From the IMG/VR virus record IMGVR_UViG_2657244961_000001: a stretch of 28,214 nt of DNA. One strand, written 5' to 3'. A model generated the notes under the pieces. That model saw only the letters and a program-made list of their open reading frames with translations, was not told where the DNA came from and did not search any database. The stretch comes from a virus. Its lineage: Duplodnaviria; Heunggongvirae; Uroviricota; Caudoviricetes. Positions 1-19,428 of the stretch are shown one piece after another (position 1 is the stretch's first letter; every line of letters begins with the position of its first letter). The translations under genes and the position numbers were made by a program.

Positions 1-138
1 CTCCAGTGGTTCCGTGTTGGTGATGTGATTTACGTCATGACGGGGATGACACCCGCACAAGGCCGCATGACTGAAATCCTTTCTGACGAATTTATCCGGG
101 CGCAAAAACAGGCGGAGGTAAACAATGGAAAACAATGA
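1..138 (+). CDS. 3' end of an upstream early-region gene (partial, hypothetical protein)
   Basis: Only frame open from position 1; ends at TGA 136-138; translation LQWFRVGDVIYVMTGMTPAQGRMTEILSDEFIRAQKQAEVNNGKQ. Confidence 0.35.
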   Translation, partial: LQWFRVGDVIYVMTGMTPAQGRMTEILSDEFIRAQKQAEVNNGKQ

Positions 139-307
139 AACATCGTATTCGTGGCTGGGGACATTTACCACTGTGAAGCAGGAATGTCCGACCTGCGGTA
201 ATGAAAACCCTGAATATCTGAAAGAGTGCCCTCATTGTGGTGGGCAGAAATGCAACCACTGCGATATGGGCGATGACACGGCGTGCATGAATTGTGAAGG
301 TGAGTGA
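125..307 (+). CDS. small Cys-rich protein (four CxxC motifs, putative zinc ribbon), hypothetical early protein
   Basis: ATG at 125 preceded by GGAGG at about 114-118; 60 aa with CPTC, CPHC, CNHC, CMNC. Confidence 0.5.
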   Translation: MENNETSYSWLGTFTTVKQECPTCGNENPEYLKECPHCGGQKCNHCDMGDDTACMNCEGE

Positions 308-308
308 T

Positions 309-617
309 ATGAATAATGGTGTATTTTCAAAATCAGAAGAGCTTGCCGCCCTGCTGATTGCCGGTGGTTTGCCGAAAAAAGAAGTGCATGACTTTGTGAA
401 TTTTGTATATGAGACGTCTCATGAAAAAGCTATTGATGAGGTCATGGCGTACCGGTTTGGCATTATTGCTGAGTCACTGAGTCCTCACTGGATTATTGAA
501 AATCTCCGCGCTATTGCTGATGGCAACGATAAATCAGCAGCCGTTGCTGCACTGGATGTGTTACGGCAAATGAGTCTGAAATTTTATCCTGAATTTATTC
601 TGAGGGCCGCAAAATGA
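309..617 (+). CDS. hypothetical early protein (about 103 aa)
   Basis: ATG at 309 preceded by AGGTGAG; an in-frame GTG at 294 is an alternative start; stop overlaps next start (ATGA at 614-617). Confidence 0.5.
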   Translation: MNNGVFSKSEELAALLIAGGLPKKEVHDFVNFVYETSHEKAIDEVMAYRFGIIAESLSPHWIIENLRAIADGNDKSAAVAALDVLRQMSLKFYPEFILRAAK

Positions 618-916
618 ACAATGAAGATAAATTTACTCCCCTTAATATTGATAACGTCATGGCTGAAAAAGGGATGCTGGAACGTGTTCGCGCTATCGTT
701 GAATATGGTATTAAGCATAATCTCACCGCCAGAGAAGTCCGTGACATTATCAACCGCGAAATGAATCGTCTGGAAACAGTAGTGGCACTGCAAAATGAAA
801 CAGCCCGCGAGGAGTACATCCGCCGCAGGCTGGGGTTATCAGACCAGGATATTGTTACTGACGCTCATGTGTTTGAGGCTTTTGAGATCCGTCAGCATCT
901 GGGTCTAACGAACTGA
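614..916 (+). CDS. hypothetical early protein (100 aa)
   Basis: ATG at 614 preceded by GAGGG; six-frame ORF 614..916. Confidence 0.5.
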   Translation: MNNEDKFTPLNIDNVMAEKGMLERVRAIVEYGIKHNLTAREVRDIINREMNRLETVVALQNETAREEYIRRRLGLSDQDIVTDAHVFEAFEIRQHLGLTN

Positions 917-1121
917 TAATGTCTTCCATGATCTTTGACAGTTGCATGTTTTCGCGGCGGCTTGTTCTTATTGCAGGCGCATCTTTTAAAATCTCTGCTG
1001 AAGAGCTGAAAATGGCTTGGCCCTCTTCTGCAGTGATGATCGCCTTCTTCACCAGAAGGCGCACCAGTGCTGATGCAATCGCATAACCTGCAACATCATA
1101 AGGTTGTACATTATTTTCCAT
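855..1121 (-). CDS. hypothetical small protein (88 aa) on the opposite strand to the early operon
   Basis: Minus-strand ATG (complement of 1119-1121) preceded by GAGAGGA 4 nt upstream; fills a 274-bp gap (917-1190) with no plausible + strand ORF; 3' end overlaps 614..916 convergently. Confidence 0.35.
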   Translation of the reverse strand: MENNVQPYDVAGYAIASALVRLLVKKAIITAEEGQAIFSSSAEILKDAPAIRTSRRENMQLSKIMEDIISSLDPDADGSQKPQTHERQ

Positions 1122-1190
1122 AAAATCCTCTCTGATTGATGTGTAAATTCAGGCGGTGTTGCAGCACCGCCTCTTTCCGGAGGTACGATC

Positions 1191-1742
1191 ATGAGTCGCA
1201 CATCCCTGATTAAATTAATCCATGTCGCCCGTCGGGAGCTACAACTCGACGATGACACTTACCGCGCTTTTCTGATGCAGAACACGGGCAAAATCAGTTG
1301 CCGCGAGCTGACGGTTACGCAACTGGAACAGGTGCTCGATGCCATGAAAGAACGCGGCTTTAAAAAGCTGAATAAACATCCACGTCGCCGCTTTAAGGAA
1401 CATGTCACGCCCCGCGAGAAGGTGTATAAAATTTGGCAGCAGATGGCAGAAGACGGTTTTATTACCGATGGCGGTGATGTGGCGCTGGATAAATATGTTC
1501 AGCGCCTGACCGCGAAACGCAACGGCGGACAGGGTGTTTCCACACTGGCGTGGTGTCACGGAGAATCGTTGCAGGTTGTGCTTGAAACCCTGAAACAGTG
1601 GCACATCCGCTGTATTCGTGAAGCCTTTTCCCGTCACGGGCTTCCGTTGCCGGTCAGTCCGTCCGGGCGTGAACTGCGCGGCTATGATGCCATGACGGCG
1701 GCTTATGCCCATGCCAGAAAGACACGGAGGATGGCACAATGA
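1191..1742 (+). CDS. gemA: GemA-like protein (Mu gp16 family)
   Basis: 183 aa, ATG preceded by GGAGG; size and position immediately upstream of mor match Mu GemA as I recall it. Confidence 0.75.
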   Translation: MSRTSLIKLIHVARRELQLDDDTYRAFLMQNTGKISCRELTVTQLEQVLDAMKERGFKKLNKHPRRRFKEHVTPREKVYKIWQQMAEDGFITDGGDVALDKYVQRLTAKRNGGQGVSTLAWCHGESLQVVLETLKQWHIRCIREAFSRHGLPLPVSPSGRELRGYDAMTAAYAHARKTRRMAQ

Positions 1743-2128
1743 CGGAAGATTTATTTGGTGATTTGCAGGATGACACCATCCTGGCACATCTTGACAATCC
1801 CGCCGAGGATACGTCACGCTTTCCGGCACTGCTGGCGGAGCTGAACGATTTACTACGCGGGGAATTGTCCCGGCTGGGTGTTGATCCGGCCCATTCACTG
1901 GAGATTGTTGTGGCTATCTGTAAGCATCTGGGCGGCGGTCAGGTCTACATTCCACGCGGTCAGGTTCTGGACTCGCTGATTCGGGATTTGCGTATCTGGA
2001 ATGATTTTAACGGTCGCAACGTCAGCGAACTGACCACCCGTTATGGTGTCACTTTCAATACGGTTTACAAGGCCATTCGCCGGATGCGACGGCTGAAATA
2101 CCGCCAGTACCAGCCCTCACTTCTGTAA
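1739..2128 (+). CDS. mor: Mor-like transcription activator (Mor/C family)
   Basis: 129 aa, start overlaps gemA stop (ATGA); sequence MTEDLFGDLQDD... recognised as Mor-like; followed by a terminator hairpin. Confidence 0.75.
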   Translation: MTEDLFGDLQDDTILAHLDNPAEDTSRFPALLAELNDLLRGELSRLGVDPAHSLEIVVAICKHLGGGQVYIPRGQVLDSLIRDLRIWNDFNGRNVSELTTRYGVTFNTVYKAIRRMRRLKYRQYQPSLL

Positions 2129-2133
2129 ACAGT

Positions 2134-2158
2134 AAAGCCGGTTAATCCGGCTTTTTTT
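2134..2158 (+). terminator. rho-independent terminator after mor (AGCCGG stem, 5-nt loop, T7 tract)
   Basis: aaAGCCGGttaatCCGGCTttttttt read directly from the sequence. Confidence 0.55.
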
Positions 2159-2205
2159 ACGTCCTCAATATCCTGTGATGAATAACCGTACCGGGGGAAA
2201 TCATC
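2159..2205 (+). promoter_or_regulatory. candidate Mor-dependent middle promoter region (position inferred, no motif verified)
   Basis: Only non-coding stretch between the mor terminator and the first middle-operon ORF; distance from here to the hairpin after C is about 1.2 kb. Confidence 0.2.
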
Positions 2206-2424
2206 ATGGGTAAAGGCTGGAATGCATCCTTTCATCTTGGCAGACGTGAGCGGCTGCGTCAGGAGGTTTTGCACCGTGTCGCCGGTGGGCCACGGCCTGC
2301 GCCCCGCGACTATACCGGTCATGATGGCACCCACGGCAGTTATTACATGAAAGGCTGGCGGTCAGTTGATATGCCGGAAATTCTTCATCATTGCCTGCTT
2401 TACAGGGAGAAACATTATGTCTGA
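2206..2424 (+). CDS. hypothetical small basic protein (72 aa), first ORF between mor and C
   Basis: ATG preceded by GGGGGA; stop overlaps the start of the next ORF (ATGTCTGA), suggesting coupling. Confidence 0.3.
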   Translation: MGKGWNASFHLGRRERLRQEVLHRVAGGPRPAPRDYTGHDGTHGSYYMKGWRSVDMPEILHHCLLYREKHYV

Positions 2425-2779
2425 GCGTTCTGCTCATCAGTGGCCTGATTTTTTATCGGTGGTGTTACTGGCGCTGTTATTGTGGATAAGTCTGTTTTGT
2501 GGCTGGCGCGCGCTGATGTTTTGCTGTGCCTCGGTTTTCAGTGTTGCTTTATGTGTTGCCGGTGATTGTCTGGATGCGCTGATAATGAGCTGCCGGGTGC
2601 CTGAACATTTTGCCCGGTTCGTCTGGCCTCTGACCTGGCTGGGGAGTCTGTCCGGGCTGGGATTAGCCGTGATGGCAACGTCTCAACTGAAAACGGGTCC
2701 TGAGCATGTCATCTGGGCGCTGGCCGGATTGCTGACGTTCTGGCTCTCCTTTCGTTTTCGTGCTCGTCTGTTCGGGTAA
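2417..2779 (+). CDS. small polytopic inner-membrane protein (about 120 aa, about 4 predicted TM helices), function unknown
   Basis: ATG at 2417 preceded by AGGGAGAAA; hydrophobic stretches FLSVVLLALLLWISLF, LMFCCASVFSVALCVAG, FVWPLTWLGSLSGLGLAVMA, VIWALAGLLTFWLSF. Confidence 0.45.
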   Translation: MSERSAHQWPDFLSVVLLALLLWISLFCGWRALMFCCASVFSVALCVAGDCLDALIMSCRVPEHFARFVWPLTWLGSLSGLGLAVMATSQLKTGPEHVIWALAGLLTFWLSFRFRARLFG

Positions 2780-2788
2780 AGGGGCACC

Positions 2789-2908
2789 ATGTACAGAAAA
2801 TTCAGTGATGAATGTTTCGGGCCGTCCACGCTGATTAGTGCGATAAAAGTGATTGCCCTTGTGGTTCTGATAACCATCAGTGCCGTGGTGTATCTTTCTG
2901 TCTGTTAA
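2789..2908 (+). CDS. 39-aa single-TM peptide (not in the supplied ORF track)
   Basis: ATG 2789 preceded by AAAGGGG; translation MYRKFSDECFGPSTLISAIKVIALVVLITISAVVYLSVC, stop TAA 2906-2908. Confidence 0.3.
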   Translation: MYRKFSDECFGPSTLISAIKVIALVVLITISAVVYLSVC

Positions 2909-2920
2909 CCGGGGGAAAAT

Positions 2921-3343
2921 ATGCAGCATGATTTATTTGAACACGATCCGGCAATTCGCCAGTTAATCGGACACATTGATAACATCCCGGCCCCGGAACT
3001 GGAATCACGCTGGCCCCGTTCGGTGGTTGATCTGATTGATGTTCTGGAAAACGAACTGAAACGCCAGAACGTCAGCAATCCCCGTGAGCTTGCCCGTAAA
3101 CAGGCCGTTGCCCTGTCCTGTTTTCTGGGCGGGCGGCAGTTTTACATCCCCTGCGGCGATACGATCCTGACCGCGTTACGCGACGATTTGCTTTACTGCC
3201 AGTTCAATGGTCGTAACATGGAAGAACTGCGTCGCCAGTATCGCCTGTCCCAGCCGCAGATCTACCAGATTATTGCCCGCCAGAGAAAGCTGCATACACG
3301 ACGTCATCAGCCTGATCTGTTCTCACCTGAAAGCCAGAAATAA
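2921..3343 (+). CDS. C: C-like late transcription activator (Mor/C family)
   Basis: 140 aa; ATG preceded by GGGGGAAAAT; shares the C-terminal FNGRN...Y..I motif region with the Mor-like protein; sits directly upstream of the endolysin. Confidence 0.75.
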   Translation: MQHDLFEHDPAIRQLIGHIDNIPAPELESRWPRSVVDLIDVLENELKRQNVSNPRELARKQAVALSCFLGGRQFYIPCGDTILTALRDDLLYCQFNGRNMEELRRQYRLSQPQIYQIIARQRKLHTRRHQPDLFSPESQK

Positions 3344-3366
3344 CCGGCATCCTGCCGGTTATTTCC
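3342..3366 (+). terminator. hairpin overlapping the C stop codon (8-bp perfect stem AACCGGCA/TGCCGGTT, 3-nt loop), possible middle-transcript terminator
   Basis: Perfect inverted repeat at 3342-3360 followed by ATTTCC; the U tract is weak. Confidence 0.3.
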
Positions 3367-3377
3367 TGTCACCATAA

Positions 3378-3387
3378 TCCCGCACCT
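3378..3387 (+). promoter_or_regulatory. TCCCGCACCT motif, candidate late-promoter element upstream of lys
   Basis: Identical 10-mer recurs at 11229-11238 upstream of the I-like gene, at a similar distance from the start codon. Confidence 0.3.
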
Positions 3388-3434
3388 GCCATCTGATTTT
3401 TTAGACTGCCATCAGCGCATTTTTTCAGGGAAGC

Positions 3435-3953
3435 ATGATGGCGGGGATACCAAAAAAACTGAAAGCCGCACTGCTGGCGGCAACGATTGCCGGTGGCGGT
3501 GTGGGTGGTTATCAGGAAATGACCCGTCAGTCTCTGATCCATCTGGAAAATATCGCTTATATGCCTTACCGCGATATTGCCGGTGTGCTTACGGTCTGTG
3601 TGGGACATACCGGGCCGGATATCGAAATGCGCCGTTACAGCCATGCGGAGTGTATGGCTCTCCTCGACAGTGATTTAAAACCGGTTTATGCGGCAATCGA
3701 TCGTCTTGTCAGGGTGCCGCTGACGCCATATCAGAAAACGGCGCTGGCAACGTTTATTTTCAACACCGGTGTTACCGCATTCAGTAAATCAACGCTGCTG
3801 AAAAAACTCAATGCCGGTGATTACGCCGGAGCGCGTGACCAGATGGCCCGCTGGGTGTTTGCCGCAGGCCATAAATGGAAAGGACTGATGAACCGTCGCG
3901 AAGTGGAAATGGCTATCTGGAATATCAGGGGGGCGGATGACCTTCGCCAGTAA
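3435..3953 (+). CDS. lys: endolysin, T4-lysozyme-like with N-terminal signal-anchor-release (SAR) domain
   Basis: 172 aa; Gly/Ala-rich weakly hydrophobic N-terminus LKAALLAATIAGGGVGG followed by an E...D...T arrangement (LENIAYMPYRDIAGVLT). Confidence 0.85.
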   Translation: MMAGIPKKLKAALLAATIAGGGVGGYQEMTRQSLIHLENIAYMPYRDIAGVLTVCVGHTGPDIEMRRYSHAECMALLDSDLKPVYAAIDRLVRVPLTPYQKTALATFIFNTGVTAFSKSTLLKKLNAGDYAGARDQMARWVFAAGHKWKGLMNRREVEMAIWNIRGADDLRQ

Positions 3954-4323
3954 AAGTTTACTGCTGGCAGCCGTGTTTGCCGCCGTTCTGTCCGGGGTGT
4001 TGTGGCACAGGCTGGACAGCACCCGCCACGATAACCAGACACTGCGCCGTGAATTACAGACGGAGCAACAGGCCCGCAACACGGCTGAATGGTTGTTACA
4101 CAGTCAGGAACAGACGATGCAGGTATTTTCTGCTATCCGTGCCGCAAATCGTGCCGCGCGGCTGGCAGACGAGACAGAACATCATGATGCAAAACAAAAA
4201 ATTACAACCGCCATTACCGGTGACAATTGCAGCACTCGTCCTGTGCCTGCCGTTGCTGCTGACAGGTTGCGGGAACTCGAAAAACGCACCCGTGCCATCG
4301 GTGGTGATCCTGCCCGAAACTGA
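3937..4323 (+). CDS. inner-membrane spanin (Rz-like)
   Basis: Starts inside the endolysin stop region; N-terminal TM LLLAAVFAAVLSGVLW then charged coiled-coil-like region; contains an embedded out-of-frame lipoprotein ORF. Confidence 0.6.
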   Translation: MTFASKSLLLAAVFAAVLSGVLWHRLDSTRHDNQTLRRELQTEQQARNTAEWLLHSQEQTMQVFSAIRAANRAARLADETEHHDAKQKITTAITGDNCSTRPVPAVAADRLRELEKRTRAIGGDPARN

Positions 4324-4525
4324 TGCAGAACTGACGGAAGCAACGCCCGTTCCGCCCATGCCACAGCCCCTGACGTGGGGAGCATCCCTTCTCTGGAATG
4401 CTGACCTGTTGATGGCGCTCGGGCAGTGCAACCGCGACAAGGCATCAGTCCGGGAACAGGAGACCCGAAGGAAAGAAATTTATGAACGAAGACCAGAACC
4501 GGGCGGTGGCGCTGCTGCTCGCTGA
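4184..4525 (+). CDS. outer-membrane spanin lipoprotein (Rz1-like), starting inside the i-spanin gene in another frame and extending beyond it
   Basis: Internal ATG at 4184; signal peptide MMQNKKLQPPLPVTIAALVLCLPLLLTGC with lipobox LTGC; Pro-rich mature region. Confidence 0.5.
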   Translation: MMQNKKLQPPLPVTIAALVLCLPLLLTGCGNSKNAPVPSVVILPETDAELTEATPVPPMPQPLTWGASLLWNADLLMALGQCNRDKASVREQETRRKEIYERRPEPGGGAAAR

Positions 4526-4676
4526 ACTCTGGCAGGGGGATACCCGTGATATTCCCCGCCCGGCGGCGTATGACCCGCCTGTATTGTGTGCCGGTTGCGG
4601 TCGTGAGCTGCGGCCTGATGTGCTGAGACAGCAGCCGATGGCGAACTACTGCCACTGGTGCCGTGGAGCAGAATAA
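4482..4676 (+). CDS. small hypothetical protein with two CxxC motifs (CAGC, CHWC)
   Basis: ATG preceded by AAGGAAAG; 64 aa; stop overlaps next start (TAATG). Confidence 0.45.
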   Translation: MNEDQNRAVALLLAELWQGDTRDIPRPAAYDPPVLCAGCGRELRPDVLRQQPMANYCHWCRGAE

Positions 4677-4975
4677 TGGATTTGATTTCAGTTTTAGCGT
4701 TATGGCCTTACCTGTTGCCTGTTGTGGCCGGTGGGGCCGTCTGGGCGATGCGTCGTAGTTTTGCCAGCACCGAGCGTGTGGAGCGTCTTGAAAACCGGAT
4801 GACCGAAATGGAAACCCGCTACGCCAGCATCCCTGGCACAGAAGATGTACACGAAATGCGCCTGCGAATTGCAGAGCTGTCCGGCGATATCCGGGTGCTG
4901 TCCCAGCGGGTGCAGTCATTTTCCCATCAACTGGAGCTGCTGCTTGAAAACGCAGTAAACCGGAGTAATTCATGA
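4676..4975 (+). CDS. small membrane protein with N-terminal TM and coiled coil (Mu gp25-like, possible lysis accessory)
   Basis: ATG at 4676 preceded by GGAG; TM LISVLALWPYLLPVVAGGAVWAM then heptad-like region; an upstream in-frame start at 4658 is possible. Confidence 0.55.
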   Translation: MDLISVLALWPYLLPVVAGGAVWAMRRSFASTERVERLENRMTEMETRYASIPGTEDVHEMRLRIAELSGDIRVLSQRVQSFSHQLELLLENAVNRSNS

Positions 4976-5262
4976 TTAACGATATTCTGACCGAAGACCG
5001 TCGTCTGGTCATCCTGCGTTCCCTGATGGACTGCAATAACGAAGCAAACGAATCCATCCTTCAGGACTGTCTGGATGCATACGGACACAACGTTTCCCGC
5101 GATGTGGTTCGCGGCCAGATTGACTGGCTGGCAGAGCAGCAACTGGTCACCGTGGAAAACCTGCGCGGCTTTTATGTCGTAACGCTGACCTCCCGAGGTC
5201 AGGATGTGGCAGAAGGTCGTGCCCGCGTTGCCGGTGTCAAGCGCCCTCGTCCCCGTGCATGA
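4972..5262 (+). CDS. hypothetical protein (96 aa)
   Basis: ATGA overlap with upstream stop; six-frame ORF 4972..5262. Confidence 0.55.
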   Translation: MINDILTEDRRLVILRSLMDCNNEANESILQDCLDAYGHNVSRDVVRGQIDWLAEQQLVTVENLRGFYVVTLTSRGQDVAEGRARVAGVKRPRPRA

Positions 5263-5273
5263 CAGGAGGCGTG

Positions 5274-5849
5274 ATGGACAGGAAAACACGGGGCCGGGCT
5301 TCAAAAGTGGATTTACTGCCGGAAAACGTACGTAAAACGCTGCATGAAATGCTGCGTGATAAAGCGATCCCACAGGCCCGCATTCTGGAAGAAATTAACG
5401 CACTGATTGAAGACGCTGGCCTGCCGGATGAGATGAAACTCTCCCGTTCCGGTCTGAACCGTTACGCGACGAACGTCGAGCAGGTAGGCCATAACCTGCG
5501 ACAGATGCGTGAAATGACGTCAGCACTGACCGCAGAACTTGGCGACAAGCCAATGGGAGAAACCACAAAGCTGATTCTGGAAATGGCCCGCAGCCAGCTT
5601 TTTAAGGCCATGATGCGGCAAATCGAAAACCCGGAATCTGACGTGGATATTGACCTGCTGAAAAATGCCATGCTGGCGGCACAGCGTCTGGAATCCACGG
5701 CAATGTCCAGCCACCGGCGCGAGAAAGAAATCCGCCAGGCGTTCGCAGAAGAAGCGGCAAACGCTGTCAGTGAAGAACTGCGCGGGCAGGATGGCATCAG
5801 CGAAGAACTGGAGCAGCGCATCCGTGATGTACTGCTGGGGAAAGCGTAG
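5274..5849 (+). CDS. putative terminase small subunit-like protein
   Basis: ATG at 5274 preceded by AGGAGG (5264-5269); acidic, helical protein directly upstream of the large terminase; function assigned by position only. Confidence 0.55.
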   Translation: MDRKTRGRASKVDLLPENVRKTLHEMLRDKAIPQARILEEINALIEDAGLPDEMKLSRSGLNRYATNVEQVGHNLRQMREMTSALTAELGDKPMGETTKLILEMARSQLFKAMMRQIENPESDVDIDLLKNAMLAAQRLESTAMSSHRREKEIRQAFAEEAANAVSEELRGQDGISEELEQRIRDVLLGKA

Positions 5850-5859
5850 GCGTTACGTT

Positions 5860-6030
5860 ATGAAAAATAATTACAAAGCACAGCTAATCAGTGCCCATAA
5901 AAAAGCCTTCAGGATTGCAACATTGTCTGATGTCCGGTTGATACACCAGATTCGGGATGTGCTTGTTCAGGCCATGGCTTCAGGCAATTCATGGCATACC
6001 ACCATAAAGCAACTAAGGATGTTGTCCTGA
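5860..6030 (+). CDS. hypothetical 56-aa ORF between the terminase genes
   Basis: Internal ATG of six-frame ORF 5665..6030; weak ribosome-binding site. Confidence 0.25.
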   Translation: MKNNYKAQLISAHKKAFRIATLSDVRLIHQIRDVLVQAMASGNSWHTTIKQLRMLS

Positions 6031-6123
6031 GGAGATGAAAATGGCGGATGCCCGGCGACGGCAGGTCAGGTGATCGGTTGTTCCTGGATTCGCCGGTAAC
6101 GTTTTACACCGGATTTTTCACCC

Positions 6124-9317: not shown

Positions 9318-10617
9318 TCTGGCGTATGCCGCACGCCTCCCGCCAAAGGAGGCTGTCGCGTATTTCCGCGCCAAAGGCTACAACATCACCTGGAACTGGT
9401 ACGAACAACTGGCAGACGCGCACGCCCGCGCCTTTACCGTTGCCAAAGCCACCCGGATGGATGTACTGACCACAATCCGTGAGGAAGTGGAGCGGGCTGT
9501 CAGTGAAGGCATCACCCGTGAGGAATTTACCCGCACACTGGCCCCCCGGCTGCAAAAACTCGGATGGTGGGGAAAACAAATCATCGTGGATGCAGACGGA
9601 AACGCAAAGGTAATCGAGCTGGGCAGTCCGCGTCGTCTGGCAACCATTTATAACGTCAATACCCGTACGGCGTACGGGGCGGGACGTTATGCGCAGATGA
9701 TGAATACCGCCGATTTGTACCCGTACTGGCAGTACGTTGCCGTTATGGATGGCAGAACACGCCCGGAACATGCGCGGCTGCATAATATGGTTTTCCGGTA
9801 TGACGACATTTTCTGGCAAACGCATTACCCGCCCAATGGCTGGAACTGCCGCTGTCGCGTCCGGGCGCTGTCTGCGGCCCGCATGAAAGAACTGGGGCTA
9901 CAGGTCAGTTATGGTGCGTCATTCATGAATACCCGCGAAGTGGATGCCGGTACGGATGAAAGCACCGGAGAGATTTTCCGCACATCGTCAACCACGTTTG
10001 ACAACGGTCGGGTAAAAATGACGCCGGATGTGGGCTGGTCATATAACCCCGGTTCGGCGGCATTTGGTACGGATCAGGCACTGATTCGAAAACTGGTGGA
10101 AGTTCGTGACGCGCAGCTGCGTGAGCAGGTTGTTCAGACGCTGAATAACAGCCGGGAGCGTCAGCTTGCTTTTTCCCTCTGGCTTAAACGTCTGGCGAAA
10201 TCACGCCGGGCCGGACATGAGGTCCGTGCGCTGGGGTTTATGACGGAAGCCGTGGCGGAGGCCGTATATCAGCGCACCGGGAATATGCCAGCCCGTCTGC
10301 TTGTGATGAACGGAAAAAGTCTGGCGACCACTGCTGATGCCGCCCTGAAACCGGAGGATTTACAGCGTCTGCCGTCACTGATGGCAAAACCACAGGCGGT
10401 ATTGTGGGACAGGGAGAACCACCAGTTGCTGTATGTTGTGGCAACCCGCGACGGCACTGCAAAAGTTGTGGTCAGAACATCGCAGGCTGTCAGCAAACAG
10501 AATGACCGGGCGGATGTGCTGGTCAGTATCAGCCGCGTATCTGCACAGTCGCTTGAAGCCGCGATTGCTGACGGGATGATTGACGTACTGGAGGGGTATG
10601 TGGAGGTGAATAAGTGA
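9298..10617 (+). CDS. F: head morphogenesis protein, Mu F-like
   Basis: Contains WQYVAVMDGRTRPEHARLHNMVFRYDD and WNCRCRV, recognised as Mu F-like; ATG 9298 chosen, GTG 9262 is an alternative. Confidence 0.8.
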   Translation: MPQQTIDLAYAARLPPKEAVAYFRAKGYNITWNWYEQLADAHARAFTVAKATRMDVLTTIREEVERAVSEGITREEFTRTLAPRLQKLGWWGKQIIVDADGNAKVIELGSPRRLATIYNVNTRTAYGAGRYAQMMNTADLYPYWQYVAVMDGRTRPEHARLHNMVFRYDDIFWQTHYPPNGWNCRCRVRALSAARMKELGLQVSYGASFMNTREVDAGTDESTGEIFRTSSTTFDNGRVKMTPDVGWSYNPGSAAFGTDQALIRKLVEVRDAQLREQVVQTLNNSRERQLAFSLWLKRLAKSRRAGHEVRALGFMTEAVAEAVYQRTGNMPARLLVMNGKSLATTADAALKPEDLQRLPSLMAKPQAVLWDRENHQLLYVVATRDGTAKVVVRTSQAVSKQNDRADVLVSISRVSAQSLEAAIADGMIDVLEGYVEVNK

Positions 10618-11084
10618 GTCTTGATATGAACGTTGCCGTGGATGTGCGACGTATTCAGCTTGCGCTGGATGAACTGGGAACCGTCACACGTGACCGCGTC
10701 ATTCCCCGTGTGATGGCTGCGGCGCTGCTGTCATCCACGGAACAGGCATTTGAACGGCAGGCAGACCCGGATACAGGGAAAGGCTGGGAAGCGTGGAGCG
10801 ATTCGTGGCTGGCATGGCGTCAGGATCATGGTTTTGTTCCGGGCAGTATCCTTACCCTGCATGGCGATCTGGCACGCAGCATTACCACCGATTATGGACA
10901 GGATTATGCCCTGATTGGCTCGCCAAAAATTTATGCTGCCATTCATCAGTGGGGCGGTACACCCGATATGGCACCCCGCCCGGCAGGCGTTCCTGCGCGT
11001 CCTTATATGGGGCTGGATAAGACCGGGGAACAGGAAATTTTTGATGCCATCAGAAAACGCGTCAGCACCGCTCTGAGGCAATAA
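10614..11084 (+). CDS. G: virion morphogenesis protein, Mu G-like
   Basis: 156 aa; GTG start at 10614 after GGAGGTG, ATG at 10626 is an alternative; position after F. Confidence 0.7.
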   Translation: MSLDMNVAVDVRRIQLALDELGTVTRDRVIPRVMAAALLSSTEQAFERQADPDTGKGWEAWSDSWLAWRQDHGFVPGSILTLHGDLARSITTDYGQDYALIGSPKIYAAIHQWGGTPDMAPRPAGVPARPYMGLDKTGEQEIFDAIRKRVSTALRQ

Positions 11085-11131
11085 ACAGAATCAGGCATAA
11101 AATCAGCCGCACAGATTTTTTAAAACGCGCC

Positions 11132-11178
11132 ACGGGATTTTTAAACCGGTATTTAACGGTGTATGAATCCCGTTTTAT
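11132..11178 (+). terminator. inverted repeat ACGGGATT(26 nt)AATCCCGT followed by TTTTAT, possible terminator or regulatory structure after the F/G genes
   Basis: 8-bp perfect inverted repeat read from the sequence; loop is long for a simple terminator. Confidence 0.25.
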
Positions 11179-11228
11179 CTTCCTTCCACTTTCTTTCTCC
11201 AGTACTCAAATAGCATAACCCCAGATTT

Positions 11229-11238
11229 TCCCGCACCT
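11229..11238 (+). promoter_or_regulatory. TCCCGCACCT motif, candidate late-promoter element upstream of the I-like gene
   Basis: Same 10-mer as 3378-3387; lies 43 bp upstream of the ATG at 11281. Confidence 0.3.
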
Positions 11239-11280
11239 CCCGCAAACTGACTGCTCACAAACCATGATGAGCAGCAGGAC

Positions 11281-12366
11281 ATGAAAAAACACGCGATTGG
11301 CATTGCCGCACTGAGTGCGCTGTCCATTGACGATGACGGCTGGTGCCAGCTATTGCCTGCCGGTCATTTCAGTGCCCGTGATGGTCGTCCGTTTGATGTA
11401 ACAGGCGGTCAGGGGTGGTTCATCGACGGTGAGATTGCCGGGCGTCTGGTTGAAGGCGTTCGCGCACTCAACCAGGACGTGCTGATTGATTACGAGCATA
11501 ACCAGCTACGTAAGGACAAAGGATTACCCCCGGAACAACTTGTCGCGGCTGGCTGGTTTAACGCCGATGAAATGCAGTGGCGTGAAGGTGAAGGATTATT
11601 TATCCACCCACGCTGGACGGCGGCGGCACAGCAGCGCATCGATGACGGCGAATTTGGTTATCTCTCTGCGGTTTTTCCGTATGACACCGCCACCGGTGCG
11701 GTGCTGCAAATCCGCCTTGCTGCGCTGACCAATGACCCCGGTGCCACCGGCATGAAAAAGCTGACCGCACTGGCGGCAGACCTTCCCGACATCCTTCAAC
11801 AGGAGAACAAACCCATGAATGAAACGCTGCGCAAGCTGCTTGCGCGTCTTGGGGTGACGGTCCCCGAAAATGCAGACATCACCGATGAACAGGCCAGCGC
11901 GGCCCTGAGTGCGCTTGATGCGCTCGAAACAGATGCCGGAAAAGTGGCGTCGTTATCCGCCGAACTGGAAAAGGCACAGAAAGCCGCCGTTGACCTGACG
12001 AAATACGTCCCGGTGGAAAGCTACAACGCCCTGCGTGATGAACTGGCACAGGCGACTGCACAAAGCGCCACAGCCAGCCTGAGCGCCGTTCTGGACAAGG
12101 CGGAACAGGAAGGCCGCATTTTCAAAAGCGAACGCACTTACCTGGAACAGCTTGGCGGTCAGATTGGCGTGGCGGCACTGTCGGCACAGCTTGAGAAAAA
12201 ACAGCCCATCGCTGCGTTATCTGCCATGCAGACCACCACAGCGAAAATTCCGTCGCAGGAAAAACCGGCGGTGGCGGTGCTGTCTGCTGATGAACAGGCA
12301 GCAGTGAAGGCGCTCGGCATTACAGAGGCTGAGTATCTGAAAATGAAACAGGAACAAGAAAAATGA
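11281..12366 (+). CDS. I: head maturation protease / scaffold protein, Mu I-like
   Basis: 361 aa; N-terminal half protease-like, C-terminal half Ala/Glu/Lys-rich coiled-coil-like; position before major capsid gene. Confidence 0.85.
   Translation: MKKHAIGIAALSALSIDDDGWCQLLPAGHFSARDGRPFDVTGGQGWFIDGEIAGRLVEGVRALNQDVLIDYEHNQLRKDKGLPPEQLVAAGWFNADEMQWREGEGLFIHPRWTAAAQQRIDDGEFGYLSAVFPYDTATGAVLQIRLAALTNDPGATGMKKLTALAADLPDILQQENKPMNETLRKLLARLGVTVPENADITDEQASAALSALDALETDAGKVASLSAELEKAQKAAVDLTKYVPVESYNALRDELAQATAQSATASLSAVLDKAEQEGRIFKSERTYLEQLGGQIGVAALSAQLEKKQPIAALSAMQTTTAKIPSQEKPAVAVLSADEQAAVKALGITEAEYLKMKQEQEK
11815..12366 (+). CDS. possible nested in-frame scaffold protein (Mu Z-like) from an internal start
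   Basis: In-frame ATG at 11815 preceded by AGGAG (11801-11805); downstream product is the helical Ala-rich C-terminal domain. Confidence 0.35.
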   Translation: MNETLRKLLARLGVTVPENADITDEQASAALSALDALETDAGKVASLSAELEKAQKAAVDLTKYVPVESYNALRDELAQATAQSATASLSAVLDKAEQEGRIFKSERTYLEQLGGQIGVAALSAQLEKKQPIAALSAMQTTTAKIPSQEKPAVAVLSADEQAAVKALGITEAEYLKMKQEQEK

Positions 12367-17355: not shown

Positions 17356-19428
17356 ATGACCGGGAAACGCTTAAAGGCGTCTGTCATTATTGATCTTAAT
17401 GGCAATCTTTCCCGGCGTTCCCGCCAGTATTCGAACCAGATAAACGCCCTGTCCCGTAGCGGGCAAAGTTCCCTTCGTGCCCTGCGTATGGAGGTTGTGC
17501 GCGTTTCTGGTGCCATTGACAGAATGGGTTCACTGTCAACCCGTACATTCCGAATGCTGTCAGCCGGGGCGCTGGGTATCGCTGGTGTGGGTTACACCGC
17601 CAATAAACTGTTTATTGGTGCAGCCGCCCAGCGTGAGCAGCAGATCATCGCCATGAACTCGCTGTATCACGGCGATAAGGTCAGAGCGCAGGCCATGATG
17701 GCCTGGGCAAAGCAGAACGCGAAGGACACCACGTGGGGGCTGAGTGGTGTTCTGGATGAGATCCGTTCGTCGAAAGGCTTCGGCATGACGGATGAACAGA
17801 CGAAACAGTTCATCACCATGTTGCAGGATCAGGGGGCCATGCACGGCTGGGATTTACCCACTGCCCAGGGTGCCTCACTGCAACTGAAACAGATGTTTGC
17901 CCGCCAGCAAATCACAGCGGCGGATGCCAACCTGCTGACCGGTTACGGTATCAACGTTTATCAGGCGCTGGCGGATGCAACGGGAACGGACGTTAAAAAA
18001 ATCCGTGATCTGGGTACAAAGGGCAAGCTGGGCCTGAAATCCATTCTGACGGTATTCAGAACGCTGTCAGAACAGTCAAAAGGTGCACAGGCCAGTGCGA
18101 TGAACTCCTGGGACGGGATGTTCGCCCAGATGGAAGCCAACCTGCTTGAATTTCGCATAAAGGTGGCAAACAGCGGCCCCTTTGAAGAAATCAAGAACGA
18201 GATGCGCCGGGTGCTTAACTGGCACGACATGGCGGATAAATCCGGGGAGCTTGACGCACTGGCAGAAAACATTGGTCAGAAATTTCTGACCACGTTCAGA
18301 ACGGTAAAAATCGCGGCGCAGGAGTTATGGCGCTGGCTGAAACCGGGTAAAGATGCGCTGGCATGGGTTGACCAGAATATTGTCAGCCTGAAAAAACTGG
18401 CTGCTGTTCTGGTGTCTGTCTGGCTTGCCAATAAAGCCCTGAGAGCAGGCTGGGCTGTGGCAAAACCCTCATGGCAGGTTGCCAGTTATCCGTTTAAAAC
18501 CGGGCGTCGTATGTGGCGCTGGATGCGAAACCGCAAACGTGGGCAGGCAGGTCTGCCGGTCCCGGATGCCATGACGTCTGAGACGCTGTTGCAGGGTATC
18601 GGCATTCAGCGTGTGTTTGTCATCAACTGGCCCCGTGGATTTGGTGGCTACGGGAGTGGCGGCGGTCGTCGCGTACGGAGCGGCGGAAGAATGGCCCCGC
18701 TGTTACCCCGCCAGCCGTTATTGCTGTCCGGGCCACAGCCGCTGGCATTACCTGCACCACGCCCTGTACTGGCATTACCCCCACCCGGCGTACCGGTAAC
18801 GGCACGGCCTGCACCATTACCTTTACCCGGTAAATCCGGTCTTCTGAGCAGGCTTGCAGGCAGTGCTGCCGGGCAACTGGTTACGGGAACGGTCGGAAAG
18901 CTGGCTGATGCCGGGCGTGCCGTTGGCGGGTGGTTTTCCGGTATCGGAAACAAACTTGCAGGCAGTGCGATCGGTCGGGTTGTGACAAAAGGTGCCGGGG
19001 CGCTGGGCTGGATGGGGAAAGGTGCCGGTCGTGCGTTGTCACGTCTGGGTGGCCCGGTAATGGGGGCACTCCAGCTTGCCCCCGTCCTGATGGATGAGCA
19101 GGCGTCAACCCATGAAAAAGCAGGCGCAATTGGCAGTACAGCCGGTGCATGGCTCGGCGGTGCCGTTGGCAGCCTTGCCGGACCGCTGGGTACGGTTGCC
19201 GGTGCCACGCTGGGCAGTGTCGCCGGGGAGTATCTGGGCGGTTTTGTAACCGACCTGTATCAGAAATGGACGGCCCCGGATAAGGAGCCGCAGGAGCAAA
19301 AAGTGAATGCGGAAGCCTCGCTGCGCGTCGAACTTGGCGAGGGGTTACGTCTGACCAGTTCCCGCGTCACCGAGGACGGTATGGGGCTGAATATTTACGC
19401 GGGCGATAACTACATTACGGGCTGGTAA
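17356..19428 (+). CDS. tail tape measure protein
   Basis: 690 aa; position after chaperone; Pro/Ala- and Gly-rich repetitive segment in the C-terminal third. Confidence 0.85.

Follow-up and report, generated by a model that had tools for sequence, protein, structure and literature searches.

The 196 bp at positions 11085-11280 of the window (the whole 28,214-nt stretch of phage DNA analysed here) are, on sequence grounds, the intergenic spacer that separates gene G from gene I in the middle of the genome of a Mu-type transposable phage. Very probably this spacer stacks the strong gyrase site (SGS), the terminator of the upstream late transcript and the late promoter P_I, together with a fourth element, an inverted repeat that lies across the P_I transcription start. 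The gap is thus long because three characterised cis elements are stacked in it, with the SGS, which was overlooked in the earlier note, as the chief reason for its length. The observation made in that note is real and of an ordinary kind in Mu, where gyrase site, terminator and P_I are all known already; the conserved repeat is a modest lead. The identities, geometry, folds and conservation reported below were computed in this study.

The G-I spacer and the strong gyrase site

A 1.1-kb query around the gap was 99.2% identical to phage D108 and 98.9% identical to Mu, and SfMu as well as several Mu-like Yersinia and E. coli phages also matched the whole query; the G-I region is carried by 44 of 5,426 complete E. 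coli genomes. With window position 10600 corresponding to position 17375 of the Mu record (AF083977), the gap differs from the Mu reference by a single base, at 11186. Based on the open reading frames and the Mu and D108 annotation, it is flanked by gene G (Mu gp31; 10614-11084, plus strand), the last gene of the lys-G late operon, whose stop codon opens the gap, and by gene I (Mu gp32; 11281-12366, plus strand), which encodes the head maturation protease and, from an internal start, the scaffold Z, while the T start at 12363 overlaps the stop codon of I. In AF083977 the gap contains four features (gyrase cut site, terminator, late promoter and ribosome-binding site). A search of positions 10900-11500 against Rfam gave no match at E ≤ 1.

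For comparison, 159 G-I gaps were collected from Mu-like loci in E. coli genomes, GTDB genomes, IMG/VR and metagenomes, spanning I protein identities down to approximately 40% and falling into 46 sequence clusters, with the Mu clade represented by 13 distinct gap sequences. The claim that this is the largest gap in the late region holds in the Mu annotation (196 bp, with at most 94 bp elsewhere), and in nearly all of the Mu-like loci the gap measures 165-250 bp, which makes the long spacer a conserved feature in its own right.

Published gyrase assays have employed a 133-bp 'Mu SGS' fragment (supplementary table S2 of PMC6379681) which, when reverse-complemented, corresponds to window positions 11037-11169 and matches at 131 of 133 bases. 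Of the two mismatches, the first falls in gene G (11067), and at the second (11106) the window agrees with the Mu reference; neither is expected to change function. The centre of the 133-mer (11103) adjoins the cleavage position at 11104/11105, which is annotated in Mu as a misc_feature 'gyrase cut site' (Mu 17879-17880), and a qPCR primer from the tables of the same publication, CGCGCCACGGGATTTTTAAACC, is found at 11126-11147. The first half of the gap, including nearly all of the terminator hairpin described below, is thus the core and right arm of Mu's SGS, an element acting at the DNA level.

The right arm (11110-11160) consists of phased direct repeats: an 18-nt repeat is present as CACAGATTTTTTAAAACG at 11110-11127 and as CACGGGATTTTTAAACCG at 11131-11148, 21 bp apart, followed by a partial third copy (ATTTAACGG) at approximately 11152, and nowhere else in the 28-kb window are two TT[AG]AA[ACG] motifs helically phased. 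This motif is also a property of the relatives, since over the 46 clusters it is 5-fold denser in the gaps (16.5 per kb) than in the coding DNA of G and I on either side (3.2 per kb), at least two copies are present in 44 of the 46 gap clusters, and the spacings are almost only 10 bp (35 cases), 11 bp (34 cases) or 20 bp (26 cases). Such gyrase sites are known to occur in Mu-like prophages (PMC3820752), with which the motif array in the relatives agrees. According to the literature, the SGS lies at the genome centre near G and I and is required for replicative transposition to proceed on time; it can do without its left arm but not without its right arm, whose repeat motifs favour the wrapping of DNA around GyrA (PMC10052514, PMC13284261, PMC3820752, PMC6379681). 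The distribution of variable sites among the 13 distinct Mu-clade gaps matches this division, as 5 of the 13 variable sites fall in the 16 bp to the left of the cut, and the 73 bp between the cut core and the hairpin's end hold only 3 of them.

The element therefore combines the location between G and I, identity with an experimentally cleaved fragment and helically phased right-arm motifs. Cleavage by gyrase with a 4-bp stagger and the need for the site in timely Mu replication are taken from published work (PMC10052514, PMC6379681, PMC3820752). Host gyrase would bind here, cut at 11104/11105 and wrap the TTTAAAC-type phased right arm around the C-terminal domain of GyrA, and the processive supercoiling ascribed to the SGS in the cited literature would help the distant prophage ends to synapse before replicative transposition.

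Terminator of the lys-G transcript and late promoter P_I

Inside the SGS right arm lies a rho-independent terminator (11132-11182, plus strand), formed by a hairpin at 11132-11173 followed by UUUAUCUUC. The 8-bp inverted repeat from which it was recognised (ACGGGATT at 11132-11139 and AATCCCGT at 11166-11173) had been quoted correctly, and proved to form the outer section of a larger, imperfect inverted repeat, whose 20-nt arms are 80% complementary and contain an inner CCGG/CCGT stem. Of the tail given as 'TTTTAT', the T-run after the repeat stands and the exact letters do not: the tail reads TTTATCTT, and T11173 belongs to the stem. The resulting two-tier hairpin starts 48 nt past the G stop codon, has a predicted folding energy of -19.8 kcal/mol (z = -4.2, equalled by 1 of 200 shuffles) and is followed by an interrupted U-run (UUUAUCUU). 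A scan of 10500-11800 with a simple terminator consensus gave no plus-strand terminator, which is uninformative as the hairpin loop exceeds the 8-nt limit of the scan. The 'terminator' feature of AF083977, a TransTermHP prediction, corresponds to window positions 11133-11178.

Analogous elements are found in diverged Mu-like phages. The outer hairpin arms are invariant across the 13 distinct Mu-clade gaps, and E. coli prophages of approximately 81% identity (L003 and L004) have another stem (GAAGGGG.../...CCCTTCCCC) followed by the same TTTATCTTTC. Of the 46 clusters, 24 carry a hairpin with T-run, at -8 kcal/mol or better, in the stretch from the repeat array to the promoter, versus 81 of 460 shuffles (18%). 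The distance from the inferred Plys start to the U-run is approximately 7.5 kb in Mu coordinates, and Zha, Zhao and Howe (J Bacteriol 1994) reportedly mapped the 3' end of a lys transcript of approximately 7.6 kb to the G-I intergenic region. The combination of a stable, G+C-containing hairpin, a U-run directly after it and a position downstream of the last gene of the operon supports the earlier assignment as the terminator for the upstream head genes, that is, the already known terminator of the lys-G late transcript, with its experimental standing drawn from the reported 3'-end mapping and the TransTermHP prediction. Late in infection, the C-activated Plys transcript (lys-G, approximately 7.5 kb) would end at this hairpin and U-run, which is partly built from right-arm sequence.

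Two other readings of this part of the gap need to be weighed. The repeat at 11132-11173 might be no terminator, having merely arisen from the self-complementary TTTAAA repeats in the right arm and having a role confined to DNA, as the 5' arm of the hairpin lies within right-arm repeat unit 2, TTTAAAA and TTTTAAA are mutually inverted repeats, and all of the hairpin except its last 4 nt is contained in the 133-bp SGS fragment. We consider this improbable: the G+C-rich outer arms (ACGGG/CCCGT) are foreign to the TTTAAA motif and precede a T-run, hairpins with a T-run but unrelated stems occupy the stretch between repeat array and promoter in other clades, and the fold is stronger on the plus strand than on the minus strand (-19.8 versus -16.7 kcal/mol). 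The distance between Plys and the hairpin also fits the length of approximately 7.6 kb that Zha et al. 1994 reportedly found for the lys transcript. With regard to coding capacity, D108 records contain a CDS ('gene 31.5', 42 codons) at the equivalent of window positions 11090-11218, and some other records have 'hypothetical protein' calls overlapping the gap. That the gap encodes such a small protein can hardly be credited, since the frame opens with ATC (Ile) and has no start codon in either D108 or the window, passes through gyrase site, terminator and C box alike, is not a CDS in the curated Mu record, and would have to accommodate gap lengths that differ between relatives by non-multiples of 3.

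Downstream of the terminator, the region that had been proposed to hold a late promoter is the C-dependent promoter P_I, as is supported by the annotation, the literature (PMC2582627, PMC4461284) and the geometry of C box and -10 hexamer. Mu late promoters have a -10 hexamer and no -35 hexamer, with a 16-bp binding site for the C protein centred at -43.5 (PMC2582627), and the feature 'late promoter, PMID 2522923' of AF083977 corresponds to window positions 11202-11268. All elements are on the plus strand: the C-activator binding region of P_I at 11205-11222 (PMC2582627), with the conserved core CATAACCCC at 11214-11222, and the -10 hexamer CAAACT at 11243-11248, which is without a -35 hexamer. 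The consensus CATAAYCCC occurs exactly three times in the window (0.46 expected), each time on the plus strand and at a late promoter, namely at 3373 (Plys), 11214 (P_I) and 20524 (P_P), and the ATAA-N24-hexamer geometry is identical at Plys (TAGACT), P_I (CAAACT) and P_P (TATCCT). This geometry of box, 24 nt and hexamer is kept in the diverged relatives, with positions A2 and T6 of the hexamer conserved. A scan of 10500-11800 for the sigma-70 consensus gave no -35/-10 promoter, and is uninformative for a promoter which lacks the -35.

The transcription start can be placed from published 92-mer promoter oligonucleotides, which carry 20 nt downstream of the S1-mapped start (PMC4461284). The last phage-derived base in the I oligonucleotide is window position 11275, which places the P_I start at 11255/11256, accurate to approximately 1-2 nt and located 7-8 nt past the -10 hexamer, as at Plys and P_P. 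The spacer between C box and -10 (11229-11244) contains the motif TCCCGCACCT, found at 11229-11238 exactly as had been described, and an overlapping second copy; the partial CCCGCA reported at 11239-11244 is present and extends one position further, to the 7 nt of TCCCGCA at 11238-11244. The full motif occurs exactly twice in the 28-kb window, each time in a late-promoter spacer (Plys 3378 and P_I 11229), a 10-bp match between the lys and I promoters that was already noted in PMC4461284. Its offset from ATAA differs, however, between Plys (+4) and P_I (+14), and allowing one mismatch gives four occurrences with 2.2 expected, which is not above chance.

Taken together, the -10 hexamer without -35, the CATAAYCCC box with ATAA at approximately -41 to -38 and the 24-nt spacing support the presence of the already known C-dependent late promoter P_I, of which the C dependence and the start site are derived from the literature (PMC2582627, PMC4461284). 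The Mu C protein, bound at approximately -43, would activate P_I approximately 80 nt past the lys-G terminator, so that the transcript of the head and tail genes would start at 11255-11256.

The inverted repeat across the P_I start

The fourth element (11251-11274, plus strand) is an inverted repeat of CTGCTCA (11251-11257) and TGAGCAG (11268-11274), which straddles the P_I start and was recognised by repeat search, folding and covariation. The earlier note had correctly located this 7-bp stem, and had read it as a structure in the 5'-UTR that ends one nucleotide before the Shine-Dalgarno sequence of I and could modulate its translation. The sequence taken for the Shine-Dalgarno (AGGA, 11276-11279) exists, and is not suited to this role at only 1 nt from the ATG; the ribosome-binding site annotated in Mu is the weak Shine-Dalgarno GAG at 11269-11271, 9 nt from the ATG and within the 3' arm of the repeat. 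RNA folding, which that note had suggested, showed that the stem as well as the terminator hairpin folds better than chance, each being equalled by 1 of 200 shuffles, with -10.6 kcal/mol (z = -3.2) for 11249-11283. The RNA initiated at P_I (11255-11300) is unstructured, however, at -1.5 kcal/mol (z = +1.15). With its start at 11255/11256, within the 5' arm, P_I mRNA cannot form the 7-bp stem, which requires RNA begun upstream and hence would fold only in RNA that reads through the terminator. The stem thus covers the ribosome-binding site and is conserved, as would suit a control hairpin in the 5'-UTR, while its two arms are not both contained in the transcript from the gene's own promoter. 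In summary, the terminator and the late promoter of the earlier interpretation stand and the 5'-UTR stem of the native mRNA does not, while the suggested comparison with Mu yields terminator and P_I in the equivalent region, plus the gyrase cut site.

Conservation of the repeats in related phages, on which the earlier reading had been made to depend, was found both for the terminator, with its arms invariant in the Mu clade, and for the repeat abutting the ATG, which covaries. Twelve distinct diverged sequences of the leader type form a stem (-8 to -15 kcal/mol) only when the 6 nt right after the -10 hexamer are included, and lose it (0 to -3.8 kcal/mol) when folded from the expected +1. Because the MAFFT alignment mis-registers the stem by a 1-nt shift, pairs were counted at set distances from both the -10 hexamer and the ATG. 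When positions 1-5 past the hexamer are set against positions 1-5 before the ATG in nine of the 12 sequences, 44 of 45 cells pair, versus 10-27 of 54 cells in a control with slid partners, and compensatory double changes are found at three of the five pairs (G-C to A-T, C-G to T-A and T-A to C-G). One further locus (L047) has a compensatory change in the inner register of the Mu type (CGCTCA/TGAGCG). Over all clusters, the ATG-abutting stem is longer than 95% of its own shuffles in 20 of 46, and stem length peaks at the ATG-abutting position, with a mean of 4.13 versus 2.4-3.2 at most other positions in the gap and smaller rises, up to 3.8, where the terminators lie. The repeat is absent from approximately 40% of the gap clusters, and the independent lineages with compensatory changes are few. 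From these data the start-abutting repeat is conserved across Mu-like phages, and not accidental.

As to its role, the mRNA from P_I would have a short and open leader of approximately 25 nt, while RNA leaking past the terminator would contain both arms of 11251-11274 and fold over the weak GAG, resulting in poor translation of I. T, which is translationally coupled to I, would be affected as well, and the untranslated read-through RNA would then be open to Rho. We therefore tentatively put forward, as a possibility with less than even chances, that the repeat is a conserved device of Mu-like phages which makes translation of the head operon depend on initiation at P_I, through fold-back of read-through RNA. 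The lys and I operons are both C-dependent and co-timed, and so the selective gain from blocking read-through translation is not evident. No description of such a start-straddling device, or of leaderless I mRNA, was found in the accessible literature.

The main competitor for the fold-back device is that the repeat acts as DNA, either as a palindromic protein site or as a hairpin, extruded by supercoiling, that would tune the opening of the promoter beside the gyrase site. We regard this as unlikely, albeit worth keeping in mind: in most of the distant clades the two arms lie on either side of the -10 hexamer itself (e.g. GGCGCA-TGAT-TGCGCC-ATG), a very strong gyrase site is located 150 bp away, and C acts at the isomerisation step at P_I, according to PMC4461284. 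Conversely, the -10 hexamer lies outside the repeat in the Mu clade, arms of 5-7 bp extrude poorly, and the arm sequence and spacing (4-22 nt) vary freely while complementarity and ATG abutment are kept, which fits nucleic-acid pairing better than a protein site. Still less probable, and to be rated about as low as the by-product reading of the terminator or slightly below it, is the full model of the earlier note, in which terminator and late promoter are followed by a 5'-UTR stem-loop that modulates I translation. It gains from the stem being real and significant, conserved at its position and containing the annotated ribosome-binding site in its 3' arm, but the published start leaves only 2-3 of the 7 nt of the 5' arm in the mRNA, the RNA from the P_I start does not fold (see above), and in the relatives the 5' arm is formed by the 6 nt directly past the -10 hexamer, upstream of any plausible start.

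Two further candidates were rejected. A minus-strand terminator at 11251-11274 was discarded because the T-run found after it on that strand in some relatives is no more than the complement of the -10 hexamer, and is missing from the clades whose arms enclose the hexamer. Stems of only 5-7 bp speak against an RNase III site.

Comparison with known systems

The G-I region is a textbook case of packed cis elements, and also has a lesson for annotation: reading of the raw sequence recovered the terminator and the activator-dependent promoter, and missed the element acting at the DNA level, the gyrase site, which explains half of the gap. The only possible new knowledge lies in the conserved repeat across the P_I start and the leaderless I mRNAs predicted in distant Mu-like phages, which, if true, would show how two co-timed late operons are insulated.

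Compared with the elements described for Mu itself, the gyrase site has the same locus, the same cut position and the same right arm with phased bending repeats as the published SGS, with 131 of 133 bases shared. Hairpin and U-run are identical to the Mu lys terminator and at its annotated position, with no sequence difference; what is made explicit here beyond the description of that terminator is that the hairpin is physically within the right arm of the gyrase site. Similarly, the C box, spacer, -10 hexamer and start region are identical to those of Mu P_I (Margolin, Rao & Howe 1989; PMC2582627; PMC4461284), to which we add that in distant Mu-like phages the same geometry puts the -10 hexamer 5-7 nt from the ATG of I. 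By this promoter geometry, the I mRNA is predicted to be leaderless in most of the distant Mu-like relatives.

With regard to the repeat, there is a common plan with IS200, where a terminator is followed by a stem which sequesters the Shine-Dalgarno sequence, shielding the transposase gene from outside transcription (PMC4513863). The geometry found in Mu and the 12 diverged sequences, with a 5' arm upstream of the start of transcription and a 3' arm that covers either ribosome-binding site or start region, is that of the IS10/IS50 type. For IS10 and IS50, 'fold-back inhibition' of read-through transcripts was reportedly described by Davis, Simons and Kleckner in 1985 and by Schulz and Reznikoff in 1991. 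As in these elements, the 5' arm of the I repeat lies upstream of the gene's own start, so that only read-through RNA would fold. In contrast to IS200, IS10 and IS50, the upstream transcript here is the phage's own co-regulated late operon and not host DNA, and the resemblance would be in the manner of action, with no membership claimed. Within Mu itself, the stem-loop of the late gene mom forms in the native mRNA, where it masks the region in which translation begins until Com protein opens it. The I repeat would likewise hide the start of a late gene in the same phage, but differs from mom/com in that the native P_I transcript lacks its stem, for which there is also no known trans factor.

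Promoter spacing and predicted leaderless mRNAs for gene I

The final ~45 nt 5' of the start of late gene I were compared between the Mu-like G-I gaps, the spacers separating late genes G and I. Approximately 29 of the 46 sequence clusters of these gaps have a −10-type hexamer located only 5–7 nt (mode 6) upstream of the I ATG, as seen in L046, L081, L087, L097, L104, L113, L146, L159, L168, L173 and other loci, and the arrangement of the C-activated late promoter P_I, with 24 nt between the ATAA of the C box and the −10 hexamer, is conserved in these short-spacing clusters. This combination of spacing and geometry predicts that the I mRNA is leaderless in ~29/46 clusters, unlike in Mu and ~10 other clusters, which have a leader of 28–41 nt.

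In the clades with a predicted leaderless mRNA, the arms of an inverted repeat enclose the −10 hexamer itself, while the 3' arm adjoins the I ATG. Examples are the repeats of L159 (GGCGCA-TGAT-TGCGCC-ATG), L081 (GACCGCC-CTAAGCT-GGCGGTC-ATG) and L113 (CCGCC-TCACACT-GGCGG-T-ATG), and complementarity is kept across at least 15 distinct arm sequences in these clades.

Repeats were also observed at the C-activated late promoter Plys of the window, where the 5-bp arms of the inverted repeat CTGAT/ATCAG (3393–3397 and 3411–3415) lie on either side of the −10 hexamer (3402–3407) and extend as far as the expected start. Plys also carries GCCATC(T/A)G as a direct repeat.

Small ORFs and the gyrase site in the G-I gap

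The end of the gap in the window contains a six-codon mini-ORF (ATG ATG AGC AGC AGG ACA TGA, 11264–11284), the stop codon of which overlaps the I start as ATGA. Comparable ATGA-overlapping mini-ORFs are found in L008 and L011, L003 instead has an upstream ATG in frame with I, and no such mini-ORF is present in the region before the I start in L005, L006 and L029; the mini-ORF is probably incidental. The D108 records also contain a 42-codon CDS named '31.5' (GQ357916, 17914–18042, corresponding to window 11090–11218), which spans the gyrase site, the terminator and the C box. This is likely to be a spurious gene call, as the annotated frame opens with ATC and no CDS is marked at this position in the curated record of Mu.

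At the equivalent of the cleavage core of the Mu strong gyrase site (SGS), a near-perfect palindrome (e.g. AGGCGTTTAAAATCATTTAAACGCCT) is found ~25–50 nt 3' of the G stop codon in L005, L029, L035 and L047, and in Mu and the L003 clade AAAATC is separated from the first TTTAAAC repeat by ~10–11 additional bp. Position 11106, within the 4-bp cleavage stagger, is a G in both the window and the Mu reference, versus a C in the published 133-bp 'Mu SGS' fragment. The nuB up-mutations are mentioned in PMC10052514, and this C may be one of them.

Relationship of the window to phage Mu

The G-I gap of the window is identical to that of the IMG/VR loci L017, L025 and L028. Gene coordinates of the window and Mu (AF083977) agree from 6124 to past 20900, and upstream of ~6124 (window 1–6123) the register is shifted by ~267 bp, with the ATAA of Plys at 3374 in the window versus a Mu-equivalent position of 3641. 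Judged by this shift in sequence register, the window is a variant of the Mu-like type, distinct from the reference Mu genome.
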